Of a stretch of DNA of 64,000 bases, positions 2,232 through 54,076 are shown piece by piece. The stretch is from positions 2,440 to 66,439 of the forward strand of contig JAGLWU010000002.1 of NCBI GenBank assembly GCA_023133275.1, written 5' to 3'. How positions within the stretch are numbered: position 1 is the first letter of the stretch; each line of letters starts with the position of its first letter. The DNA is from Candidatus Moraniibacteriota bacterium. GTDB taxonomy: Bacteria; Patescibacteriota; Minisyncoccia; Moranbacterales; GCA-2747515. A program made the translations under genes and the position numbers. The notes beneath the pieces were generated by a model. The model was not told the origin of the DNA, did no database searches, and saw only the letters and a program-made list of their open reading frames with translations.

Positions 2232-3677
2232 TTAAACCAGTAAAAAATAATCTAACGGAATTTTAACTATATTACCTATAATATCTAATTTTTCACTTCC
2301 GATAACTATTCCATATTTAGTTCTATTATTACTTTTTAAAATAGTTTTTTCTACTTGTTTTATTTCTTCTTTGCCAAAACCAATTTCAATTACAATCTCA
2401 TCTTTACTTGAAAAACGTAAAATAAAATCAGCTCCACCACTTCCATAATCATAATACACAATTATCTCCCTAAATAATTCTTTTGAACAAATTAAAGCTA
2501 CATAATCCTCCAGCAAAGATCCCTTTATATCATCACCAAAAATACCATTTAACAAACCCGCTCTAATATTTGAACTAATAAATAAATATTTTGATGATTT
2601 TTTAACTTGTTTATAGGGTTGTCCATACGGTTTAACCTCAAAAAGTATTTCTGCGTCAACTAAAGATGCTAAAATCTTATTTACAGTACTAGAGTGAATT
2701 TTTAAAGTATTAGCTAAATTACCTGTGCTTATTTCACTAGAATTAGCCAACAAAAATAAAACATCAGGAATCCTTACAAGTGTCTCTGCATCAAAATCAC
2801 CCGAAAGAATTAAATCTCTTTGAATAATATTAGTTAAAACCATATTCTTAATTCTTTCCAATGCTGATGATTTATTTTCCATTTCTGCCGAAAAAGGAAA
2901 AGCCCCTCGCAAAAAATAATTATTTTTTATAAACTGTAAATTTTTAATTTTAGATAATTCCTTTACAATTGATGATTGTAAATTTACTAAAGAATTATAA
3001 ACCTCCTCTGCATTATTTTTATTAAAAATTGAGTTTTTTATTTTTTTACTTAATTTATCATCTAACTCTACATTTTCATGCAAAAACAAATTTTCTGAAA
3101 ATTTCTCGGGCAAAATTCTCTTTGTTTTTGACCTTCTTACCAAATCTTTATTTTTTTGATTTAAGAAAATAGCCGATGAACCAGTAGCCACAATTAATAT
3201 ATTATTATTACCTTTTGTTTTATCAAAAAGTAATTTTAAAAACAAATCCCATTTTTCATCATATTGAATTTCATCAATAAGCAAAAGTATTTTTTTTGAG
3301 CTATTGCTTAATCCACTCCATATATTTTTTTCGAGATAAGATATAAATTCTTGTAAAGATATTTTTTCAGACAAAAGACGGTCCACTGAAATATATATTT
3401 TCTCATCAAGGTTATTTTTTGTTTTATTAAATTTTTCATAAAAATATAGCTGAGATAACAAAGTAGTTTTTCCTACCCCTCGAATACCTGGTAAAACAAT
3501 TATTTTATTTTCTTCTGAAAGAGAATTGTTTAATAAATCATCTAAATATTTTTTTAATTCAATATAAACAAACCTTGTTTTTCTTAATTCTTTTTTTTCA
3601 TTGAAAATATACCCCGATAAATAATCATCGAGATTAGCTTTCCATTCAATATAAAAATTTTCTATTTTTTTGTTCAT
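2232..3677 (-). CDS. AAA+ ATPase, DUF4143/COG1373-like family
   Basis: Walker A VLPGIRGVGKTTLLSQL, Walker B LLLIDEIQY, and a C-terminal region typical of DUF4143-type stand-alone ATPases. Confidence 0.75.
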   Translation of the reverse strand: MNKKIENFYIEWKANLDDYLSGYIFNEKKELRKTRFVYIELKKYLDDLLNNSLSEENKIIVLPGIRGVGKTTLLSQLYFYEKFNKTKNNLDEKIYISVDRLLSEKISLQEFISYLEKNIWSGLSNSSKKILLLIDEIQYDEKWDLFLKLLFDKTKGNNNILIVATGSSAIFLNQKNKDLVRRSKTKRILPEKFSENLFLHENVELDDKLSKKIKNSIFNKNNAEEVYNSLVNLQSSIVKELSKIKNLQFIKNNYFLRGAFPFSAEMENKSSALERIKNMVLTNIIQRDLILSGDFDAETLVRIPDVLFLLANSSEISTGNLANTLKIHSSTVNKILASLVDAEILFEVKPYGQPYKQVKKSSKYLFISSNIRAGLLNGIFGDDIKGSLLEDYVALICSKELFREIIVYYDYGSGGADFILRFSSKDEIVIEIGFGKEEIKQVEKTILKSNNRTKYGIVIGSEKLDIIGNIVKIPLDYFLLV

Positions 3678-3701
3678 ACTATAATCATAACAAAATTATA
3701 T

Positions 3702-3784
3702 TTTGATTATACGCTAGCGTTATCAAAAAGTCAATGCTTTAAGAATAGCTCACTTAAAGGATTTTTTGATTAATTTTGATTTTT
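3702..3784. repeat. direct repeat copy 2 (partner of 1313..1395)
   Basis: See copy 1. Lies immediately upstream of the AAA ATPase start codon, in the minus orientation. Confidence 0.7.
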
Positions 3785-6144: not shown

Positions 6145-7944
6145 CTATGAATGATTCACTAAATTTTTTGAAGCCTGATTTATTTTTTCTAAAATATTTT
6201 TCTGTTCTTGATAATCACCCGTCTTCTGCACTTTTTTTAACTCTTGAGTCAACCGAGTAATTTCTTGCTTATTTTTTTCTTGAACAACATTTTTAATATA
6301 ATCTTCCATATCGGAAATAGGACTACTTTCGTCATAATGCTCAATTTCATACCTCTGTTTAAAATTCAAAGCCTCTTTGTAAATATTTTCTCGACTATTA
6401 TCTTTACTAACAAAATTACCCGCTTCAAAATTACAGTCTGGACCTTCTCGAATTAAAACAGCTAAAAAATTATGTTCTTTCAAAATTGAATATCTTTTTT
6501 TATTATCATAAATATGTTTCCAAACGTGCGGATAAGACAACATCATCAAAGCAATTATTTTATACAAACGATATAATCTAGAATTTTTAATTTCATCACT
6601 GACGTTTTTTTGAACACTCTTTTCTGCTGATTTATAATTTTTAAAAACTTTATTGTCTTCTATTTTATATTTATCCACAATGTCAAAAATTACTTTTTCT
6701 TCAACATTGAAAATATCTGCACATTTCGAAATCCACGCCTCCCGCTCTATTTTATTATCAATTTTAGAAACAAAAGAAACTACTTCATCCACTGCCAATC
6801 GTTTATCATGCGGATCAGAAAAATCATATTTACTTTTCGCCAAATCAATAAAAGTCACAATCACATTTTTTGCCTCACTAATAATTTGCTTTAACTTTTC
6901 AGGATCATCTTTAACAATGTCCGCCGCATCTTTTCCTTCTTTCAAGATAATTATGGAAAGACTAACATCTGCCGACAAACAAGTTTTTGCACTTCGCTCA
7001 ACTGCTTTCATCCCTGCATCATCCGAATCAAAAAATAAAACAAAATTTTTCGTATACCGTTTAAGAATTTTAATATGATCATCCGTCAAAGCTGTCCCTG
7101 AAACTGCCACTACATTTTCCACGTCCGCCTGCCAAGCTGCCATCACATCCATATTACCTTCCATAATTATCACCTGATCTTTTTGCTTAATTGACTGTTT
7201 TGCCAAATCAATTCCGTAAAGAATACTACTTTTGTGATAAAGTGGCGACTCTGGCGTATTAACATATTTTGCTTGAGACTCATCTTGCCCAGGTAAAACT
7301 CGAGCCGTAAATCCAACCACTCGACCTAAAGAATCTGCAATCGGAAAAATAATTCTATTACGAAAACGATCGTAATATCCACCTGCATTTTTTTCAACTA
7401 AAAGTCCTGCTTCAAAAATATCTTCTTTCGTAAAATTTTGATTCACTAAAAAATTTTCTAAATAATTCCAACCTTTTGGTGCAAATCCAATTTTAAATTT
7501 TTTAATAATTTCATCGCTCATTCCCCGCTCTCGTAAATATTTTAAAATTTCATTATCATTATTTCCCGCAAAAAGTTGTTTAGCATAAAATCGAGCCGTT
7601 AAATCTAAAATAGAATAAAAAGTATCGTTTTTTTGTTTTGTCTCTTTATTCTGAGAAAAATTATTTTGCAATTCAACACCAGATCTTTCCGCCAACATTT
7701 TCAAAGCCTCTTGAAAACCAATTCCTTCAATTTCCATGATAAAAGTCAAAATATCACCACTCTGATTACAGCCAAAACAGTGATAAAATTGTTTGTCCTC
7801 ATTAACAATAAAAGAAGGTGTTTTTTCCTGATGAAAAGGACAATTAGCTTTTAAACTACTTCCCGTTTTGATCAATTTTACGTACTCACCCACTATATCC
7901 ACAATGTTAACTCTGGACTTTACTAATTCGACATCCGATGACAT
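6145..7944 (-). CDS. dnaG: DNA primase DnaG
   Basis: Zinc-binding CPFHQEKTPSF...CFGCN, a TOPRIM region, dnaG-rpoD synteny. Stop codon is TAG, followed immediately by TAA. Confidence 0.95.
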   Translation of the reverse strand: MSSDVELVKSRVNIVDIVGEYVKLIKTGSSLKANCPFHQEKTPSFIVNEDKQFYHCFGCNQSGDILTFIMEIEGIGFQEALKMLAERSGVELQNNFSQNKETKQKNDTFYSILDLTARFYAKQLFAGNNDNEILKYLRERGMSDEIIKKFKIGFAPKGWNYLENFLVNQNFTKEDIFEAGLLVEKNAGGYYDRFRNRIIFPIADSLGRVVGFTARVLPGQDESQAKYVNTPESPLYHKSSILYGIDLAKQSIKQKDQVIIMEGNMDVMAAWQADVENVVAVSGTALTDDHIKILKRYTKNFVLFFDSDDAGMKAVERSAKTCLSADVSLSIIILKEGKDAADIVKDDPEKLKQIISEAKNVIVTFIDLAKSKYDFSDPHDKRLAVDEVVSFVSKIDNKIEREAWISKCADIFNVEEKVIFDIVDKYKIEDNKVFKNYKSAEKSVQKNVSDEIKNSRLYRLYKIIALMMLSYPHVWKHIYDNKKRYSILKEHNFLAVLIREGPDCNFEAGNFVSKDNSRENIYKEALNFKQRYEIEHYDESSPISDMEDYIKNVVQEKNKQEITRLTQELKKVQKTGDYQEQKNILEKINQASKNLVNHS

Positions 7945-8078: not shown

Positions 8079-8215
8079 GTACTAGCCGTACGGGCTTTTC
8101 TGAAACAAGGGGTCATGACCCCTCATTCAATTCTTAAAAGTTTTCTGTCACTCTGAACGGAATAATTTTTATGAAACAAAATTACGTAGTGAAGGATCCC
8201 CCACAAAGAATCCGA
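8079..8215. repeat. composite intergenic repeat: GTAC-hairpin module plus 20-bp palindrome CAAGGGGTCATGACCCCT plus TGTCACTCTGAACG...GTGAAGGATCCCC module
   Basis: Same modules recur at 28371-28480, 32850-33035, 36026-36158, 14056-14080, 26233-26253 and 50769-50789. Confidence 0.7.
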
Positions 8216-8290
8216 AAGTCCCCAATCATATCACTTTAAAAAGCTTTCATCAAACTAAAAATTTAAAAATAATAATTCAAAAAAGTACTT

Positions 8291-9277
8291 TTAATTACTT
8301 AAAAGCAATAAAATTAATCCTATCATTTTATCTATTTCTTTAGGATTAGATTCCGCAATCAAAAGAGTAAGAATCGTCAAAGTCTCTGGAGAAATATTTT
8401 TCCGAAAATCAAAATTCGCCTTTTGCAAAAACCAAATGAACGAAAAAGCTCCGGTTCGTTTATTGCCATCAGTAAACGGATGATTCTTAATCACAAAATA
8501 CATCAAATGTGCCGCCTTCTCCTCAACGGTCAAATAAACATCCTTCCCAAAAATAGACTGCAACACATTTCCCAAAATACCATCCAAATTTCCTTTTTTC
8601 TTTTCTTGTGCAAAAAGTTCAGTTGCCTCTTTTTTTGAAACAAGTTCTTTTTTAAATATCTCAATGTCAGCATATAAATCTTTAGCTTGAACTTTCACTT
8701 TTTTCTCACTCATTCCTTTTTGCGGAAATTTTTGTTTATCATACTGATCCAGAGAAAACCAAGTTTCCGAAAATGTTTTAACTAATTCCAAAGCATCTTC
8801 TGTTTTAATTTTAGAATTACTTTTTGTTAAAACTTTTACATTTTCTGCAGTTTGTAAAAATTCTTGATAATTTTTTGCAAGTTGATGTTCGTTAATTGTA
8901 AAACCTTTAGTAATATGTGCTTTCAAAATTTTTATTGCCCATTGTCGAAAAGTAATAGCGACGGAAGAATTTGTACGATAGCCTACCGCAAGAATTATAT
9001 CTAAATTGTAAAATTTTATTTCTCTTGTTTGTGTTTTTCCTTTAACTGCACCATGTTGAGTGGTTTGTGCAAAATTTGCACAAACCATTTGTTCGTCAAT
9101 CTCTCCATCATCAAAAATATTTTTAATATGTTTTGTAATGACTGTTCTATCTACTTCAAAAATTTGAGCAATTTGTTTTTGATTTGCCCAAATTGTTTCA
9201 TTTTGTGCGTCTTCCTTCAAACGGATTTCTCCATCTTTTGTTTGATATATTGCTAATTTTTTGAGATTGTTTTTCAT
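8291..9277 (-). CDS. RhuM-family N-terminal domain fused to a Fic/DOC domain protein
   Basis: N-terminus is RhuM-like: IYQTKDGEIRL...NQKQIAQIF...KHIKNIF. C-terminus carries the Fic/Doc motif NHPFTDGNKRTG. Confidence 0.7.
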   Translation of the reverse strand: MKNNLKKLAIYQTKDGEIRLKEDAQNETIWANQKQIAQIFEVDRTVITKHIKNIFDDGEIDEQMVCANFAQTTQHGAVKGKTQTREIKFYNLDIILAVGYRTNSSVAITFRQWAIKILKAHITKGFTINEHQLAKNYQEFLQTAENVKVLTKSNSKIKTEDALELVKTFSETWFSLDQYDKQKFPQKGMSEKKVKVQAKDLYADIEIFKKELVSKKEATELFAQEKKKGNLDGILGNVLQSIFGKDVYLTVEEKAAHLMYFVIKNHPFTDGNKRTGAFSFIWFLQKANFDFRKNISPETLTILTLLIAESNPKEIDKMIGLILLLLSN

Positions 9278-9343: not shown

Positions 9344-9946
9344 TTATTTGAAATTTTCATCTTCCTCCCATTTTTGAAAATTATAAATAATATAATTTCT
9401 AATATTTAATAATTCTTTTTCATTTCTAATAATTCTATCGTAAAATCTAGGTTGCCATGCAAAATTTATTTTGTGATCTTTATTTTTTATTTTAAAATTC
9501 TTATTTATTGTTTTTGTGCAAATTGATTTAAATGAACCAATTATCGCTGAAATTGTATTTTTACCTTGATTTTGAAAACGATTTTTTCCAATATTTTCAT
9601 CCGCCTCCACCGTAGAGATAAGGCACTGCCTTGTCTCTACATTTGCGGAAATTTCTCGCTCTACCTCATCAATCACAATTATTCCATGAATGTGATTTGG
9701 CATAATTATAAATTCATCTAATCGTACATTTTGAAAATGATTTGGAATTTCCAACCAAAATTTTTCTACGATTTTTCCTATTTCATTTAAAATTAATTTT
9801 TGATCTTTTATTTTTCCAAAATAATTTTCTTTGTTTTTTGTGCAAATTGTTATGTAATACTAACCTGCTGATGCGTAATTCCAGTTTTGTAAACGGGTTG
9901 ATTTTGTGCGATATTTATTTTTGTATTTTTCTGGATTTATTTGCAT
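9344..9946 (-). pseudogene. REP-associated tyrosine transposase (RAYT, IS200/IS605 Y1 family) disrupted by an in-frame TAG at 9860-9862
   Basis: N-terminus MQINPEKYKNKYRTKSTRLQNWNYASAG, then TAG, then YYITICTKNKENYFGKI...IIMPNHIHGII (HuH) ...FAWQPRFYDRIIRNEKELLNIRNYI in the same frame. The ORF track shows only the TTG-initiated downstream part, 9344-9754. Confidence 0.75.
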
Positions 9947-9963
9947 TTGTTTAATTCTTCACA

Positions 9964-9998
9964 ATCGTAGAAACGTTGCAATGCAACGTTTCTACGAT
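9964..9998. repeat. REP hairpin 1 (GTAGAAACGTTGCA / TGCAACGTTTCTAC), directly adjacent to the RAYT gene
   Basis: Perfect palindrome beginning with GTAG. Same family as the hairpins at 35988, 37367 and elsewhere. Confidence 0.75.
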
Positions 9999-10024: not shown

Positions 10025-10966
10025 TTATTTTCCAATTGGAAATTTATCTGTAATTATGTTACCCGTAAAACTTCCATTGTCTGTATCATTAAAATGATTA
10101 GAATTAACAGGTGTTGTAATTAAATCAACAACTTTAGAAATTAAATGATTCTTTAATCCTTCATCTGTTTTTTCTTTTAATAAATAATTTTCTAAAATTT
10201 TTGCATTTAATTGCAAATGTCTGTATCTTGAAAGTAGATCTGCATAAATACGATAATTCTTTTGAGCAAAATAATATTGAGAATAAAGTAAACCAAAAAA
10301 TGCCAATTTAAAAAGTGCTAAAGCATATAGTTCATTTCTATCTATTTCTTTACAAAAATATAAAATAAAATATGACAAAAAAATAATAATTGAAAATATA
10401 ATAAGCAAACCAAAAATATTATTTCTTTTATCCATCCAATATTTTGCTGATTCTTCATTATTATTATCAGTACCTAATTCACTGACTCTATCTGAAATTT
10501 GTTTTTCAATAACATTACTTGTTTTACCATCGATAACATTTTCAACATTTTTTAATGCATTATTTAATTTTTCTATTTGATTATCTACTGCAATTTTATC
10601 TTCTTTTAATTTTTCTATTGAATTATTTTTTGTCTCCTCAGTTTCAAAATTTTTTAAAACAAAATCATTTCTTAAAAATAAATCTATAGTAAAATCTCTT
10701 ACTTCAATTACAGACTGTTTTAAATTATTTATATATTGAGCAGCAAAAGAATTTGGATCTTGTTCTACTTGTTTTATACCTTGAGAAACTTTCATAAACT
10801 TTTTATTCAATTCAAGTTCCTCAACCTCATCAGCAACACCAAGAAAATCAATTAAATTAAAAAATTTATTACATTTATCTATTTCTTTTGTATACTGATA
10901 TATAATTTTTCCATTAATTTTATAAGTATTTAATTTATTAATAAATTCTTCTTTTTTTATATTCAT
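10025..10966 (-). CDS. hypothetical coiled-coil / two-TM membrane protein
   Basis: 313-aa ORF with a long coiled-coil region followed by two hydrophobic helices (LLIIFSIIIFLSYFILYF; LYALALFKLAFFGLLY). No motif recognised. Confidence 0.5.
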   Translation of the reverse strand: MNIKKEEFINKLNTYKINGKIIYQYTKEIDKCNKFFNLIDFLGVADEVEELELNKKFMKVSQGIKQVEQDPNSFAAQYINNLKQSVIEVRDFTIDLFLRNDFVLKNFETEETKNNSIEKLKEDKIAVDNQIEKLNNALKNVENVIDGKTSNVIEKQISDRVSELGTDNNNEESAKYWMDKRNNIFGLLIIFSIIIFLSYFILYFCKEIDRNELYALALFKLAFFGLLYSQYYFAQKNYRIYADLLSRYRHLQLNAKILENYLLKEKTDEGLKNHLISKVVDLITTPVNSNHFNDTDNGSFTGNIITDKFPIGK

Positions 10967-14055: not shown

Positions 14056-14275
14056 TTAACCGCAAGAAACTTTTCAATCCATACAAAATTTATGCAAACC
14101 CTTAGATTTGTCATTCCGGAAAATATATTTTCTTTCCGTAGTAGGGCTCAAGCATGCCTGAGCCCTACTACTACAAGAAAACAATTTATTCAGAATCTAT
14201 ACTTTAAATTTAAAGAAAACTCAAAGTACACTTTTTTCTGAAATCCTGAATAAATTATCTTTCCACTTCGTTACA
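14056..14275. repeat. composite repeat: GTGC-hairpin module plus a TGTCATTCCGGAAAATA long hairpin element with REP hairpin 2 nested in its loop
   Basis: gtcattccggaaaatatattttctttcc ... GTAGTAGGGCTCAagcatgccTGAGCCCTACTAC ... caatttattcagaatc; then ttctgaaatcctgaataaat. Confidence 0.7.
14138..14171. repeat. REP hairpin 2 (GTAGTAGGGCTCA...TGAGCCCTACTAC)
   Basis: Perfect 13-bp arms, GTAG head, inserted into the loop of a TGTCATTCCGG hairpin element. Confidence 0.7.
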
Positions 14276-14326
14276 AAATAATTTTTTAGGATTACAGTTT
14301 TTTTAATTTTCTAACTATCTACAAAT

Positions 14327-26232: not shown

Positions 26233-26405
26233 GTGCTCGCCGCACGGGCTTTTCACCATTTCTCATTCATATCATTCCGGAAAATATATTTTCTTTCATA
26301 GTGCAACGATGAAATAGAAAATAATTTATCCGGAATCTTTACTCTAAGTTCAAATAAAACCTAAAGCAAAACTTTCTTCCGAGATCCTGAATAAATTTTT
26401 TTAAG
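26233..26405. repeat. composite repeat: GTGCTCGCCGCACGGGCTTTT module plus a TCATTCCGGAAAATA long hairpin element ending in AAGATGACA
   Basis: A stem of about 26 bp (attccggaaaatatattttctttcat / atgaaatagaaaataatttatccggaat), then cttccgagatcctgaataaat. Confidence 0.7.
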
Positions 26406-26435
26406 ATGACACACTAACTAGTTACGAATTACCGA

Positions 26436-28357: not shown

Positions 28358-28370
28358 GCAAAAAATCACA

Positions 28371-28672
28371 AACAAGGGGTCATGACCCCTTGTTCAATTT
28401 CTAAAATTTTCCTGTCATTCTGAACGAAGTAATTTTTTGTAAAAAAAATTACGTAGTGAAGAATCCCCCACAGAAAATTAGAAAACTTCTATTTTTCAAG
28501 ATTTTAAACCCCTACAAAATTGTACAAATTCCCAAACATGTCATTCCGGAAAATAATTTTGGAGTGAAACGAAGAAATTATTTATCCGGAATCTATAAAT
28601 TAAGTTTAAAGAAAATTTAAAGCATAATATTCTTCCGAGATCCTGAATAAATCATTTCATTTTTCAAGATGA
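28371..28672. repeat. composite repeat region: 20-bp palindrome CAAGGGGTCATGACCCCTTG plus TGTCATTCTGAACG module plus TGTCATTCCGGAAAATA hairpin element
   Basis: Modules shared with 8079-8215, 14056-14275, 26233-26405, 36026-36158 and 50530-50790. Confidence 0.7.
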
Positions 28673-28676
28673 CAAA

Positions 28677-28726
28677 ATGTCTAATTATCTAAAAATCTAC
28701 CGTTCTACAAGTCTAAATTAGATTTC
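28677..28726. repeat. TCTA 8-bp phased array (5 units), upstream of the ZIP transporter gene
   Basis: tctaatta tctaaaaa tctaccgt tctacaag tctaaatt; a TATAAT lies 6 bp downstream. Confidence 0.6.
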
Positions 28727-34572: not shown

Positions 34573-34617
34573 ATTTAAAATTATTTAATCAAAAATAATC
34601 TTTTAATAACTCAGACT

Positions 34618-35892
34618 ATGAAACTAATCCAAAACTTCACACAATTTCTCCTCTTCCTAATCCCCTTCCAATTCGCCCTCAACATCGGAAGCACCATCGA
34701 CCTAGCCATTATTCGAGTAGCAATAATAGCCCTATTTTTAATTTACCTCACCGTCGCCTTATACAAAAAAAACCTAATCATCCCCAAAGGACTAATCGCC
34801 CTATTCAGTTTCCTCTTCATTTTCTGGACAACCTTTTCAATATTTTACACCCCAGTTCTCAGCTGGACATTAAGAAAGATAATATTCTTAATTTTCATCG
34901 GAATAATTTTTCTAGTTTTCACCAACATTTTAAATTATGCCAAAAAAGAAAATAAAATAGATTCACTGATCAAATATTTAGTCGCTGGATCAATCCTCGT
35001 ATCTCTAATAGGAATCATTCAATTTTTCTCCCAATTCATACTTGGCTTAAACACAATTTTAAATTTATGGACTGCCATCGCACCGTTTTTTCTCGGCAAT
35101 TCATTTTCTGAAGCAGTCATCGGATACAACAGTTGGCTAGTCAACGTGGCTGGAGTAAATTTAATTCGAGCCACCGCCTTTTTTCCCGACCCGCACATTT
35201 TTTCTTTTTACTGTGGTTTAACTGCACCATTTTCTCTCGCTTTATTTTCAAAAACAAAAAAATATTTTTGGCTTTTAGGATTTTTCACAATCATTCTAGT
35301 CGACTTACTAACTTTCACCCGAGGAGGATATTTCGGTTTACTCGTCGGATTTACAGTCGGAATAATTTTATTTTGGAGTCAATTGAAAACTTTTCACAAA
35401 CATCTTGCCACACTATTTATAATTTTATTTATTTTAATTCTCTTCATTCCAAATAATTTTTTCATAAACAGATTTCAGTCTTCTTTTGATCAGTCAGATA
35501 ATTCTGTGAATCTTCGCTTGGAATTACTGTCAGAAGCTTGGCAAACTGTACAAGAAAATTTATTTGTCGGCGTTGGACTGGGAGCTTATCCGAAAGTAGT
35601 CAATCCACAGGCAGATTATCGGATGCCAATTTATGCACACAATACATATTTAGATATTTGGGTTGAATTAGGACTAATAGGCTTCTTACTATTTTTAATT
35701 TTATTATTTACTCTTTTAATTATTTTTTATAAAAACAGAGAGAAAACTTTTCCTAAATTTGCTATAATAAGCTTAAGTATTTTCATGGGACATTTAATTT
35801 TCGACACGCCAATTTTTTCCGTTCACATTTTTCCTGTTTTTATTTTTATAGTTGCTCTAGGTTCTTTTTATGAAAATGAAATTAGTAACTAG
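34618..35892 (+). CDS. O-antigen ligase-like (Wzy_C) membrane protein
   Basis: AHNTYLDIWVELGLIGFLLFL is the Wzy_C signature. Twelve TM segments. Confidence 0.7.
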   Translation: MKLIQNFTQFLLFLIPFQFALNIGSTIDLAIIRVAIIALFLIYLTVALYKKNLIIPKGLIALFSFLFIFWTTFSIFYTPVLSWTLRKIIFLIFIGIIFLVFTNILNYAKKENKIDSLIKYLVAGSILVSLIGIIQFFSQFILGLNTILNLWTAIAPFFLGNSFSEAVIGYNSWLVNVAGVNLIRATAFFPDPHIFSFYCGLTAPFSLALFSKTKKYFWLLGFFTIILVDLLTFTRGGYFGLLVGFTVGIILFWSQLKTFHKHLATLFIILFILILFIPNNFFINRFQSSFDQSDNSVNLRLELLSEAWQTVQENLFVGVGLGAYPKVVNPQADYRMPIYAHNTYLDIWVELGLIGFLLFLILLFTLLIIFYKNREKTFPKFAIISLSIFMGHLIFDTPIFSVHIFPVFIFIVALGSFYENEISN

Positions 35893-35987
35893 TCATCAGT
35901 AATCCGTAACTAAAAAAATTTTAAATGTGCTTTTTTATCATACTCTTATCATAAGACTTTTCATTTATCTTAGTGAAATTTTTCTAA

Positions 35988-36022
35988 TTCGTAAAAACGT
36001 AGCACTGCTACGTTTCTACGAA
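35988..36022. repeat. REP hairpin 3 (GTAG head on the minus strand: GTAGAAACGTAGCAG TGCTACGTTTTTAC)
   Basis: Compensatory change relative to REP1: GTTGCA/TGCAAC becomes GTAGCA/TGCTAC. Confidence 0.7.
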
Positions 36023-36025
36023 TAG

Positions 36026-36158
36026 AGAAGAAAATATATTTTCCGAAATGACTGCTCGAGTAACTACAAAGGATCACTCCTATAAAATATATGAAAAGCC
36101 CGTGTAGCGAACATTTAAACTCTTTTAAAAAAACAGTGGGTCATGACCCACTGTTCAA
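36026..36158. repeat. composite repeat: inverted TGTCATTTCGGAAAATA end plus GCCCGTGTAGCG module plus palindrome CAGTGGGTCATGACCCACTG
   Basis: The palindrome carries paired substitutions relative to CAAGGGGTCATGACCCCTTG, so the hairpin is preserved. Confidence 0.7.
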
Positions 36159-36168
36159 AAATAAATTT

Positions 36169-37377
36169 ATGCAAAAATTAATCAAAAAAAATATAACAAT
36201 TGACATTTTATTATTTCTCTCAATAATATCAATTCCCCTTTATCAAATAAGAGTAAATATTTTTATCACATCTTTAAGTTTATTGAGTCTCGCAGAATTA
36301 ATTTTAATAATGTTTGGTATTTTTATTTACAGGAGAGAATTAAAAATTATTTATTTAAAAGAAAAATATTTTTTTAATTTAATTTTAAGTCTTTTGGCAA
36401 TTTTATTATTAAGCGTTTTAAAAACAAACACTATTCACGCTTACGGAATTTTTATAGAATGGTTTCTCCTTCCAATATTAGCCAGTTTTATTATTTTAAT
36501 TTACTTGCGACAAAATGAAAATAAAATTTTGTTATTAAAAAAAATGATAACTTTTATTTTTTTTGCTGTTTCTGTAGTGGCTTTATTTTATTGGTTCAAA
36601 AAAGATTTAACTTTTGATGATCGTTTAAAAACCTTTTATCTTTCTCCAAATCATTTGGCAATGTTTATTTCTTCAACAATATTTATTGTTTTTAGTTTAA
36701 TTTATGAAATTAAAAATAAGTTAATAAAAATTTTGTTAGCAATAATAATTTTAATTGGAATATTAATTTTATTTAAAACTAATTCGATTATTAATTTACT
36801 GGCAGTTTTTATGGCTATTAATATTTACTTGATTTATTTTTATCGTAAAAGTTTTATTTTAATAGTAAGTATATTTTTAACAATAAGTTTAATTTTTATT
36901 TCTGTTCAACATAAAATTCCAAATGTTGAAACTGTTTTTAAAAAAAATTCTGGCAGTTCCAGATTAGTTATTTACACCGTTTCATTAAATTTAGCAAGAA
37001 AAAATTTGTTTATTGGAAAAAATTTAGGCAATTTTCAAAATAAATATTTAGCACAACAACAATTTTACCCGCCGTATCCAGAATGGGCAGTGCCAACTCC
37101 TCATAATTTCATTTTGATGAATTTGTTTTCTGGCGGACTTATTTTTACAATATTGTTTATTTTAATAATTGTTTATTGGATTTTTAAGATGTTTATTAAA
37201 TTAGGAAAAGCAAAAAATAAACAAAAAATTATTTTTCTTTATATTTTAACAATACTTGTAATTATCATTCAAGGAATTTTTGATACGCCATATTGGAAAA
37301 ACGATTTGTCTTTCATTTTTTGGATTGTGATAATTTTAGGTTTAAGTGAAAAAAGTTTTTTAAAATTAAAAACGTAG
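36169..37377 (+). CDS. O-antigen ligase-like (Wzy_C) membrane protein; start trimmed to ATG at 36169
   Basis: PHNFILMNLFSGGLIFTILFIL Wzy_C-like motif. The 5' extension to 36091 only translates the intergenic repeat. Confidence 0.65.
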   Translation: MQKLIKKNITIDILLFLSIISIPLYQIRVNIFITSLSLLSLAELILIMFGIFIYRRELKIIYLKEKYFFNLILSLLAILLLSVLKTNTIHAYGIFIEWFLLPILASFIILIYLRQNENKILLLKKMITFIFFAVSVVALFYWFKKDLTFDDRLKTFYLSPNHLAMFISSTIFIVFSLIYEIKNKLIKILLAIIILIGILILFKTNSIINLLAVFMAINIYLIYFYRKSFILIVSIFLTISLIFISVQHKIPNVETVFKKNSGSSRLVIYTVSLNLARKNLFIGKNLGNFQNKYLAQQQFYPPYPEWAVPTPHNFILMNLFSGGLIFTILFILIIVYWIFKMFIKLGKAKNKQKIIFLYILTILVIIIQGIFDTPYWKNDLSFIFWIVIILGLSEKSFLKLKT

Positions 37378-37394
37378 CAGTACTACGTTTCTAC
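37367..37394. repeat. REP hairpin 4 (minus-strand GTAGAAACGTAGTACTGCTACGTTTTT)
   Basis: AAACGTAG/CTACGTTT stem. Confidence 0.65.
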
Positions 37395-50529: not shown

Positions 50530-50790
50530 CATTATGTCATCCTGAAAAATTATTTCATTTTTTGTAAAAAAATTAAAAAATTTATTCAGGATCTCAGAAG
50601 AACATCATACTTTAAATTTTCTTAAAACTTAAGGTGTAGATACTGAATAGATTAATTTGTATTCAATCGCTACGCTCTTGAACAAATTATATCTTCCAGC
50701 ATGACATATCTGGGAGTTTGTACAGTTTTGCAGGAGTAAAAAATCTTTAATTAAATTTTCAACCCAAAAAGCCCGTGCGGCGAGTACTTT
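50530..50790. repeat. composite repeat: TGTCATCCTGAAAAATTATTT hairpin element with an inverted end (TTCCAGCATGACAT) plus an inverted GCCCGTGCGGCGAG module
   Basis: atgtcatcctgaaaaattatttcattttttgtaaaaaaattaaaaaatttattcaggatc forms an 18-bp hairpin. Confidence 0.65.
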
Positions 50791-53919: not shown

Positions 53920-53928
53920 ATTTTATTT

Positions 53929-53956
53929 GTAGGGAACGCAGATCTGCGTTCCCTAC
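53929..53956. repeat. REP hairpin 5 (GTAGGGAACGCAGA / TCTGCGTTCCCTAC, perfect 14-bp arms)
   Basis: Between the ftsH stop and tRNA-Val. Confidence 0.7.
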
Positions 53957-53961
53957 GAAAT

Positions 53962-54035
53962 GCGCGTGTAGCTCAGTTGGTTAGAGTGCTTGCTCGACAC
54001 GCAAGAGGTCTCAGGTTCGAATCCCGACACGCGCA
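53962..54035 (+). tRNA. tRNA-Val (anticodon GAC)
   Basis: GCGCGTG acceptor paired with CACGCGC, D-arm TAGCTCAGTTGGTTAGAGT, anticodon stem CTTGC/GCAAG with loop TCGACAC (C at position 33 is unusual), T-arm TCAGG/TTCGAAT/CCCGA. Confidence 0.75.
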
Positions 54036-54041
54036 CAAATA

Positions 54042-54076
54042 AAAGTAGGGACTAGTCATTGGCTAGCCCCTACTTT
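54042..54076. repeat. REP hairpin 6 (AAAGTAGGGACTAG tcattgg CTAGCCCCTACTTT)
   Basis: GTAG-headed palindrome directly after tRNA-Val. Confidence 0.65.

Follow-up and report, generated by a model that had tools for sequence, protein, structure and literature searches.

A probable RAYT REPtron, recently broken by a single nonsense change, in a Moraniibacteria-like genome

What is one to make of an open reading frame that looks like a REP-associated tyrosine transposase (RAYT) from end to end, except that a single TAG interrupts it near the start, and that stands next to a perfect palindrome? The locus that raises this question lies on the minus strand of a 64,000-nucleotide stretch of DNA from a Candidatus Moraniibacteriota bacterium, which we refer to throughout as the window. 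Our analysis favours, with a probability of roughly three in four, the reading that the locus is an ordinary RAYT REPtron recently broken by one nonsense change, with its cognate GTAG hairpins alongside and with a Moraniibacteria-like (CPR/Patescibacteria) host. By REPtron we mean a RAYT gene that is present once, at a fixed chromosomal position, together with the GTAG-headed hairpins cognate to it.

The gene extends from 9946 down to 9344, and its translation yields 200 codons followed by TAA, with exactly one internal stop and no frameshift, just as the first-pass annotation had read it. The stop is the TAG at codon 29 (9860 to 9862, minus strand), which directly precedes strand beta1 (YYITICT; residues 31-36 form a strand in an AlphaFold model of the protein). 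Since the TAG falls at codon 29, translation from the native start would end after 28 residues, and codons 1-28 (9863 to 9946, minus strand) are the sole segment expected to be translated from there; they carry the N-terminal motif KYR..S.RL..W.Y, of which S16, R18, L19, W22 and Y24 are shared by 91-100% of 118 homologs. Beyond the stop, the HuH motif His85-Ile86-His87 lies within MPNHIHGI (9686 to 9694, minus strand), the WQ motif is W164-Q165, and the Tyr motif reads Y185-I-I-Y-N189-F190 (9377 to 9394, minus strand), with Tyr185 (9392 to 9394) as the predicted catalytic residue and Asn189 as the predicted metal ligand. Among the same 118 homologs H85 is found in 98% and H87 in 100%, and H85, H87 and Y185 each fall in the range 98-100%. 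The HuH and N-terminal motifs named in the first-pass annotation are present; the stretch WQPRFYDRII that it quoted is the W motif and not the Tyr motif, the tyrosine itself lying in NYIIYNF. As it had also stated, ORF callers report only a TTG-started fragment of 136 aa (9344 to 9754, minus strand), without beta1, the beta-hairpin and helix alphaA, and it is this remnant that has been deposited in public databases (entry P0002).

Both its sequence and its predicted fold mark the protein as a Y1 HUH transposase of RAYT/TnpA-REP type, and the earlier identification therefore stands. The Y1_Tnp family (Pfam PF01797) matches at 34.9 bits against a gathering cut-off of 23 (E = 1.9e-8). The best NCBIfam match is REP_Tyr_transpos (NF047646), at 66.4 bits; since this is below the equivalog cut-off of 80, the copy does not count as an equivalog of the RAYTs that the model represents. 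We found 3,453 homologs, about 3,450 of them full-length (180-250 aa) and reading straight through the position of the TAG. A sequence-only search of the PDB gave a marginal match (E = 0.07). When the AlphaFold model (pLDDT 75.7, pTM 0.70) was compared with the PDB using Foldseek, the 30 best matches were all IS200/IS605 or TnpA-REP chains, and the best superposition was with E. coli TnpA-REP (4ER8; rmsd 3.0 A, 16% identity in the structural alignment). When the protein is aligned with 4ER8, H85, I86, H87, Y185 and N189 correspond to H59, M60, H61, Y115 and N119 of 4ER8, the tyrosine Y115 being named as such in PMC3479197.

Among the RAYTs, the sequence agrees with subclass 2.4 as defined by Quentin et al. 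in 2018 (PMC6006769), which is group 4 of Bertels, Gallie and Rainey 2017 (PMC5581495). Members of this subclass have the motifs NH[IFV]H, WQ and YIxNNP and a median length of 194 aa, and both double-foot REPs and a REP inserted within the gene have been described for them (PMC6006769). Our gene has NHIH, WQ and YIIYNF (Y-I-x-x-N) in its 200 codons, a variable insert between beta3 (HuH) and alphaC, double-foot GTAG...CTAC REPs and a REP in frame within the coding sequence. It also appears to be low-copy, vertically inherited and unlike an insertion sequence, as judged from the 64-kb window, which holds no second RAYT copy, and from a syntenic ortholog. It differs from the described members in its nonsense codon, in the final Pro of YIxNNP, which has become Phe in this copy only, in having no downstream flanking REP, and in its CPR/Patescibacteria host: the text of PMC6006769 makes no mention of Candidatus, Parcubacteria, Patescibacteria or "candidate phyla", and a literature search on RAYTs in Patescibacteria gave irrelevant matches only. 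In type, then, the locus is a further example of an already known RAYT/REP system.

How was the reading frame broken? A sister genome, Candidatus Moraniibacteriota HOU_bin.0114, has an intact RAYT ortholog of 197 aa within the shared context pyrG - x - RAYT - dnaG - rpoD, and the two pyrG genes are 91% identical at the nucleotide level and align codon for codon over 547 codons. At codon 29 the ortholog has TGG (Trp), so that the lesion amounts to a single TGG to TAG transition (G to A). The first-pass annotation had placed the TAG at the conserved Ala of a G-A-Y-F motif; since the column is in fact variable (A 44, Y 41, W 6 and others among the 118 homologs, with Trp in the ortholog), the lesion did not strike a conserved alanine. 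The further claim that the amber codon is the sole lesion holds in so far as it is the only stop and, of the 61 columns with a conservation of 85% or more, 60 are intact. It needs qualifying at position 190, where Phe replaces the Pro expected from the family consensus YIxxNP; this is the sole window-specific deviation and is itself suspect. Against the sister, dN/dS is 0.11-0.15 for codons 1-95 and 0.30 for codons 141-200, and such low values, with only one other suspect change, would make the knock-out very recent. Taken together, the absence of frameshifts, the visible purifying selection and the nearly complete set of conserved positions point to a recent event.

The same observations could also mean that the gene is not broken at all, the TAG being an artefact of assembly or consensus, or else a minority or segregating allele, in a RAYT that really reads TGG. 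Only one base separates the codon of the window from that of the ortholog, the remaining ORF looks selected, its conserved sites are kept, and there is one independent assembly only; the one other contig with the TAG, ENA ERZ23498665 scaffold_213, agrees with the window at every one of the 19,754 bases compared and is therefore not independent support, and a look-up of sequence clusters yielded no further members. On the other hand, the neighbouring genes are intact, with pyrG colinear with that of the sister, and the assembly is therefore not prone to errors; the gene shows a second and independent oddity in P190F, within its catalytic motif; and substitution errors are rare in short-read consensus, which also counts against an artefact. 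We regard an intact RAYT as unlikely.

We now turn from the gene to its palindromes. The GTAG-headed perfect palindrome reported earlier at 9964 to 9998 is indeed present: ATCGTAGAAACGTTGCA-T-TGCAACGTTTCTACGAT has 17-nt arms, 100% complementary, around a 1-nt spacer (17+1+17), and is separated by 17 nt from the ATG (here and below, REPs are given without strand). As single-stranded DNA it is predicted to fold with -17.8 kcal/mol, z = -10 relative to shuffles. Its core, about 29-31 nt, is identical before the sister ortholog, and directly outside this core there is a compensatory T:A versus C:G pair. A second double-foot REP, GTAGAGACAAGGCAGTGCCTTATCTCTAC on the coding strand, lies inside the gene at 9612 to 9640, in frame, where it encodes VETRQCLIST (codons 103-112); its fold is weaker (-9.4 kcal/mol, z = -6.4), and in the model the peptide falls in a loop with pLDDT below 50 (residues 98-126). 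The sister ortholog also has an internal REP, and among metagenomic homologs the site is occupied at 53 of 80 loci, where flanking REPs, if present, are usually near-identical to the internal one. External REPs have a GTAGAAAC foot, and most internal REPs in homologs a GTAGAGAC foot. Downstream, no flanking REP occurs in the 66 nt that separate the RAYT from the gene that follows, whereas the sister ortholog has both flanking REPs. We dropped the thought that the internal REP might be a novelty, since it is already in Quentin et al. 2018 (PMC6006769). That the palindrome at 9964 to 9998 is itself a REP is supported by its GTAG and CTAC feet, by its conservation before the ortholog, and by its recurrence both in the window and at RAYT homologs.

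The recurrence within the window can be made quantitative. A double-foot REP has been defined as a palindrome of 20-40 nt with a 5' GT[AG]G foot and a 3' C[TC]AC foot (PMC6006769), and the REP palindromes described here have this form. A hairpin census counted 7 GTAG-footed hairpins in the 64 kb, and a strict double-foot scan found 5 distinct ones, compared with 0.12 per mononucleotide shuffle; all GTAG hairpins of the window are extragenic save the one internal to the RAYT. Two belong to the family of the upstream REP: GTAAAAACGTAGCA-C-TGCTACGTTTCTAC at 35987 to 36023, intergenic between two Wzy_C paralogs, and a degenerate copy at 37367 to 37393, which overlaps the TAG stop of the gene at 36064-37377. 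An intergenic double-foot REP with a second stem type, GTAGGGCTCAAGCATGCCTGAGCCCTAC, lies at 14138 to 14171, and two more, GTAGGGAACGCAGATCTGCGTTCCCTAC (53926 to 53959) and GTAGGGACTAGTCATTGGCTAGCCCCTAC (54042 to 54076), lie directly 5' and directly 3' of a tRNA-Val gene. These last form the only close pair, their palindromes at 53929-53956 and 54045-54073 being different in sequence; no REPIN arrangement (two inverted REPs with a spacer) occurs in the window, where the copies are solitary palindromes. In a scan of a genome collection, whose matches did not include the window's own genome, the sister genome had a strict 25-mer of the REP at only 4 loci, a low copy number, and most matches in distant phyla had no RAYT within the 8 kb examined. 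Classically, REPs number more than 100 copies per genome.

Could the REPs do more than accompany the gene? One may suppose that they bound a recombination-prone cassette, internal and flanking REPs serving as joints in subclass 2.4, with exchange at these joints either mediated by the RAYT or stimulated by the hairpins. The upstream REP and the first 95 codons show a dS of 0.15 against the sister, compared with 0.42 for pyrG (p about 5e-4); similarity to the sister RAYT collapses a few codons before the internal REP; and, when window and sister are compared, the genes on both outer sides of the REPtron are unrelated or inserted. If this were true, exchange at REP joints would let lineages trade halves of the gene and adjacent cargo, and the TAG would have arisen very recently, on a segment that had itself just been exchanged. 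We consider such a cassette distinctly doubtful.

Alternatively, the palindromes might simply serve the upstream genes, as transcription terminators or as hairpins that stabilise mRNA, and be functionally unlinked to the transposase. They are intergenic and downstream of genes, REPs elsewhere in bacteria do act as RNA elements (PMC3733652), and a role of this kind would be compatible with that of a REP, the two not being mutually exclusive. However, no T-tract follows the palindromes, and a scan for promoters and terminators around the RAYT gave no signal stronger than in shuffles, and the REP had no terminator. Moreover, all the palindromes have GTAG/CTAC feet, the same 29-mer precedes the orthologous RAYT, related hairpins lie inside or beside RAYT homologs at 53 of 80 loci, and one hairpin is inside a coding sequence, where a terminator would be harmful. 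An Rfam scan of the window found its four tRNAs only, with no known RNA family at the hairpins. An explanation of the palindromes solely in terms of the upstream genes thus strikes us as very improbable.

One might also accept the TAG and suppose that it is decoded, whether by readthrough, by a suppressor tRNA or by a recoded genetic code, so that full-length RAYT is made, perhaps in throttled amounts. The column at codon 29 tolerates at least 14 different residues, and a working protein would therefore result from nearly any amino acid inserted there. But TAG is the stop of 19 of the 51 long ORFs in the window, reading through it adds almost no ORF length (54.7 kb of coding length with readthrough and 53.5 kb without), none of the four tRNAs of the window has a CUA anticodon, and the ortholog has an ordinary TGG. 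We therefore rejected an alternative code for TAG; in this single assembly the premature stop is there, and the code does use TAG to end translation. Recoding of TGA (code 4 or 25, as in some CPR) was set aside as well, pyrG and other long genes being uninterrupted under code 11. Decoding of the TAG is an idea to which we give hardly any credence.

Least of all do we believe that we are dealing with the ordinary transposase of a mobile IS200/IS605 insertion sequence and not with a domesticated RAYT, the palindrome then being an IS end: the TnpA proteins of IS608 and ISDra2 do share the Y1 HUH fold and the recognition of (subterminal) DNA hairpins and have the best Foldseek E-values, but transpos_IS200 of NCBIfam scores 21.7 bits against a cut-off of 55, the motifs are those of class 2 (NHIH / WQ / YIxxNP) and not DH[VI]H / Y..NQ, the gene occurs once in 64 kb and without TnpB, its chromosomal position is shared with the sister genome, and the hairpins are dispersed on their own.

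Returning to the recently broken REPtron, how would the intact locus have worked? Binding and cleavage of single-stranded REP DNA have been described for the E. coli enzyme alone (PMC3479197, PMC3333891), and the RAYT literature cited here reports no enzymatic activity of any subclass 2.4 member, for which we infer REP mobilisation. In subclass 2.4 the REPs are double-foot palindromes running from 5' GTAG to CTAC 3', and the gene usually has one of them in frame, at a surface loop that follows the HuH strand and precedes helix alphaC. If the intact enzyme behaved like E. coli TnpA-REP, it would bind REP hairpins extruded in single-stranded DNA, would read the GTAG foot, and would cleave and rejoin nearby DNA by means of His85 and His87, a metal ion and Tyr185; the predicted substrate of a protein with Trp29 restored would be single-stranded GTAGAAACGTTGCA... 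hairpins. The G to A change turned Trp29 (TGG) into TAG just before the first core beta-strand. The first in-frame restarts, TTG65 and ATG82, would give a product without beta1, the beta-hairpin and alphaA that should not fold as an HUH nuclease. The remaining REPs would then be orphaned and should slowly decay.

The analogy with E. coli has its limits. The E. coli protein (RayT, YafM; subclass 2.2) shares with ours the HUH fold, the aligned catalytic residues and GTAG-footed hairpins. However, E. coli REPs are imperfect, bulged and single-footed and occur in hundreds of copies, whereas the window has near-perfect palindromes with two feet, about one in every 9 kb, and the E. coli gene has no internal REP while the RAYT here has one. 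A closer parallel for the lesion is found in Neisseria gonorrhoeae, where a single-copy RAYT was inactivated by a point lesion and its repeats remain (Bertels and Rainey, bioRxiv 10.1101/2021.07.10.451892). That lesion is a frameshift, a premature stop codon also being mentioned, and the same work provides the precedent for a RAYT knock-out followed by REPIN decay. The gonococcal RAYT differs in belonging to group 2, in a lesion that is clade-wide and in REPIN decay that was measured; here we have one genome.

The importance of the locus is modest, and the current understanding of RAYTs is unchanged by it. It does place a RAYT/REP system, hallmarks of subclass 2.4 included, in the ultra-small genome of a Moraniibacteria-like CPR bacterium, a kind of genome that has little mobile or repetitive DNA. 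Furthermore, the intact gene of the sister and the one-base knock-out of the window constitute a natural matched pair, which could show whether REPs decay after the loss of their RAYT. For annotation, the deposited "protein" of 136 aa would be the tail of a 200-codon pseudogene. As a further point for annotation, conserved-looking peptides, such as VETRQCLVST in the RAYT family, are encoded by a DNA palindrome.

Our analysis indicates that the RAYT (TnpA-REP transposase) gene at 9946-9344 on the minus strand is a complete reading frame broken at one place only. Translated from the ATG at 9946-9944, the frame gives 200 sense codons and then TAA at 9346-9344, its sole interruption being the TAG at 9862-9860, codon 29. 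There is no frameshift between 9946 and 9344, the sign by which the first-pass annotation would have recognized an older decay, and its account of a RAYT interrupted by a single stop beside a hairpin holds, with corrections for the lost residue and the catalytic tyrosine. As it also stated, the mechanical ORF listing gives only a TTG-started fragment of 136 amino acids (9344-9754); the public-database entry P0002 is exactly this fragment. In the window (G+C 29.5%), the 51 long ORFs end in TAA (27), TAG (19) or TGA (5), reading TAG as sense yields almost no gain in ORF length, and none of the four tRNAs (Asn, Gly, Pro, Val) is a suppressor. TAG thus serves here as a normal stop.

Profile and homolog searches were made with the protein carrying X at the stop position. 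It matches Pfam Y1_Tnp (PF01797) with 34.9 bits (cut-off 23), the similarity expected from the first reading; its best NCBIfam match, REP_Tyr_transpos, scores 66.4 bits, under the equivalog cut-off of 80, and with the NCBIfam IS200 model it obtains no more than 21.7 bits (cut-off 55). The 3,453 homologs are nearly all ~175-250 aa long and uninterrupted at the codon-29 position. The AlphaFold model, for which 25 sequences were used (pLDDT 75.7, pTM 0.70), shows a predicted Y1 HUH fold: its PDB matches are Y1 HUH transposases only, and it superposes best on E. coli TnpA-REP (4ER8; rmsd 3.0 Å, TMq 0.50). A phmmer alignment with 4ER8 pairs H85/H87 with H59/H61, Y185 with Y115 and N189 with N119, and since these 4ER8 residues are the catalytic and metal-binding ones (Messing et al., PMC3479197), the predicted catalytic tyrosine is Tyr185, in NYIIYNF, and not the Tyr of WQPRFYD, the stretch quoted in the first-pass annotation.

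The closest full-length relative is P0001, a 197-aa protein of 'Candidatus Moraniibacteriota bacterium HOU_bin.0114' (GCA_942490825.1), whose gene has the same neighbourhood as in the window: pyrG, one gene, RAYT, dnaG, rpoD. Codon 29 is TGG in P0001 and TAG in the window, so by this comparison the lesion is one G->A transition from Trp to stop. The stop had been placed at a conserved Ala; however, the column is variable: of 118 homologs, 44 have Ala, 41 Tyr and 6 Trp, and the rest share eleven further residues. Ala is the commonest; the residue lost is Trp. In the AlphaFold model codon 29 directly precedes strand beta1 (residues 31-36). The earliest canonical in-frame restart codons after the TAG are TTG65 and ATG82, and a product restarted at either lacks beta1, the beta-hairpin and helix alphaA and would presumably be non-functional.

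How old is the lesion? Between the window and P0001 dN/dS is 0.15 in codons 1-95, rising to 0.30 in codons 141-200, and of the 61 alignment columns with at least 85% conservation in the family, 60 are either kept in the window or altered just as they are in the intact P0001, the sole window-specific deviation being Phe for Pro190 in the catalytic YIxxNP motif. These values argue that RAYT has been under purifying selection over essentially its whole divergence. The TAG stop is either very recent or else not real; the fragment is on just one further contig, which matches the window with 100% identity over 19,754 compared bases.

What the data show directly is how the locus is built, the modelled fold, the match of the catalytic residues, the change to a stop codon, and hairpins that are conserved and vary in a compensatory way. 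A mechanism may be added to this by analogy with the E. coli enzyme (PMC3479197, PMC3333891, PMC8266576). An intact RAYT would bind REP hairpins in single-stranded DNA, reading the GTAG foot, and would cut and join DNA by Tyr185. With RAYT truncated at codon 29, the genome's REPs would be orphaned and expected to decay, as reported for REPs with a frameshifted RAYT in Neisseria gonorrhoeae (bioRxiv 10.1101/2021.07.10.451892). Mobilisation of REPs by subclass 2.4 is likewise putative. In our view the system is a CPR-genome RAYT that was broken only recently.

Quentin et al. 2018 (PMC6006769) define TnpA-REP subclass 2.4, which is Bertels RAYT group 4, as proteins with NH[IFV]H, WQ and YIxNNP motifs and a median size of 194 aa, in which beta3 and alphaC are separated by a variable insert; their REPs are of the 'double-foot' type, having GT[AG]G as the 5' foot and C[TC]AC as the 3' foot. 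The window RAYT matches all the defining features, with YIIYNF (P190F) as its own Tyr motif. A REP also lies inside the gene, at 9612-9640 (coding strand GTAGAGACAAGGCAGTGCCTTATCTCTAC), where it encodes in frame VETRQCLIST, codons 103-112, within a loop (residues 98-126) of pLDDT <50 in the AlphaFold model. While striking at first sight, such an internal in-frame REP is already published for the subclass. A double-foot palindrome occurs at gene nt 234-376 in 53 of 80 metagenomic homolog loci; its stem tops vary with complementarity kept, and a flanking REP, where found, is in most cases nearly identical with the internal copy (for instance L030, L034, L037, L039, L044, L056, L067, L099, L102). 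The homolog peptides VETLQCNVST and VEKRHCLFST, and RDKALPCLY in another frame, are as predicted by compensatory DNA changes. What is conserved is the DNA palindrome, not the encoded peptide. In some metagenomic homologs (L048, L049) the same loop holds internal REPs in tandem, two or three of them, with the protein lengthened, which indicates repeated in-frame REP gain within the gene.

The perfect GTAG palindrome reported beside the gene is indeed there: the upstream REP (9964-9998) consists of 17-nt arms that pair perfectly across one central T, lies 17 nt 5' of the ATG, and folds as single-stranded DNA at -17.8 kcal/mol, against -3.4 +/- 1.4 in shuffles. Its 31-nt core is identical 5' of the sister ortholog, and the pair just outside the core differs in a compensatory manner (T:A in the window, C:G in the sister). 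The sister RAYT has a downstream REP (7187-7216 of its locus, L001); none is present in the window within the 66 nt ahead of the next gene. A census found seven GTAG-footed hairpins in the window, namely the internal and the upstream REP and those at 14138-14171, 35987-36023, 37367-37393, 53926-53959 and 54042-54076, and a stricter double-foot scan gave 5 distinct hairpins against 0.12 per mononucleotide shuffle. Among tetranucleotide-headed palindromes in the window, GTAG ranks second after AAAA, the mark of terminator-like hairpins; no T-tract follows the hairpins near RAYT. All the GTAG hairpins are extragenic save the one inside RAYT, and their density of ~1 per 9 kb indicates a low-copy REP family.

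A tRNA-Val (53962-54036) lies between two GTAGGG-type double-foot REPs with different stems (53926-54076). Within 34579-37393, two Wzy_C (O-antigen ligase-like) paralogs lie in tandem, each 437 aa long and each with a GTAGAAACGTAGCA-type REP behind it. The second of these REPs overlaps the TAG stop of its gene; GAAAATATATTTTCCGAAATGAC, the sequence after the first, also comes after the sister RAYT's downstream REP. Two more intergenic repeat families, with copies of ~115-180 bp that share 73-84% identity, have no relation to the GTAG hairpins (8103-8217, 28370-28484, 1279-1393 and 3668-3782; 14176-14296, 26260-26424, 28495-28687 and 50535-50750), and one includes a GGGGTCATGACCCC palindrome.

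Beyond the window, the strict 25-mer AAACGTWGCANTGCWACGTTTCTAC has no more than four sites in the sister genome and occurs 1-2x per genome in Nostoc, Flavobacterium, Saprospiraceae, Chloroflexota and others. The 29-mer GTAGAAACGTTGCANTGCAACGTTTCTAC, varying solely at the central loop base, is found in distant phyla (loci L003-L024): in Nostoc, Calothrix, Flavobacterium, Saprospiraceae and Chitinophagales, and one-footed in Chloroflexota and Roseiflexus. At these loci, usually 1-2 per genome, there is usually no RAYT within the 8 kb examined.

Set against its sister locus (window 9344-9998, L001 6485-7140), RAYT with its upstream REP is a mosaic. Codons 1-95 together with this REP have 95.7% nucleotide identity and a dS of 0.15, lower than that of pyrG (0.42; binomial p ~5e-4). 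Identity to P0001 is 61.5% over codons 96-140, the drop beginning a few codons ahead of the internal REP, and 77.8% over codons 141-200 (dS 0.69). At the protein level the N-half is 94% and the C-half 69% identical, an outlier in 7,021 family pairs; all other listed pairs with an N-half of at least 85% have a C-half of at least 78%. The gene between pyrG and the REP (window 10025-10966, minus; L001 5620-6480) is not the same in both genomes, the two versions being unrelated (BLASTP E=1.8), and nucleotide homology restarts ~14 nt ahead of the palindrome, so that the REPtron (RAYT with its cognate REPs) sits between two variable slots. Between RAYT and dnaG a RhuM/Fic-DOC family gene (8291-9277, minus; Pfam Virulence_RhuM and Fic) is present only in the window, the sister having there a REP and a ~370-nt spacer. 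The mosaic, seen in one genome pair, is compatible with gene replacement or recombination whose joints lie in the REPs or close to them, a reading to which we give a low probability.

Finally, among the database homologs, P0010 has Trp at Gly positions of its Gracilibacteria relative P0008 (SNWWYF, FWKIAE, QNQWKWT), which suggests that TGA, read as Gly in code 25, was wrongly translated as Trp.
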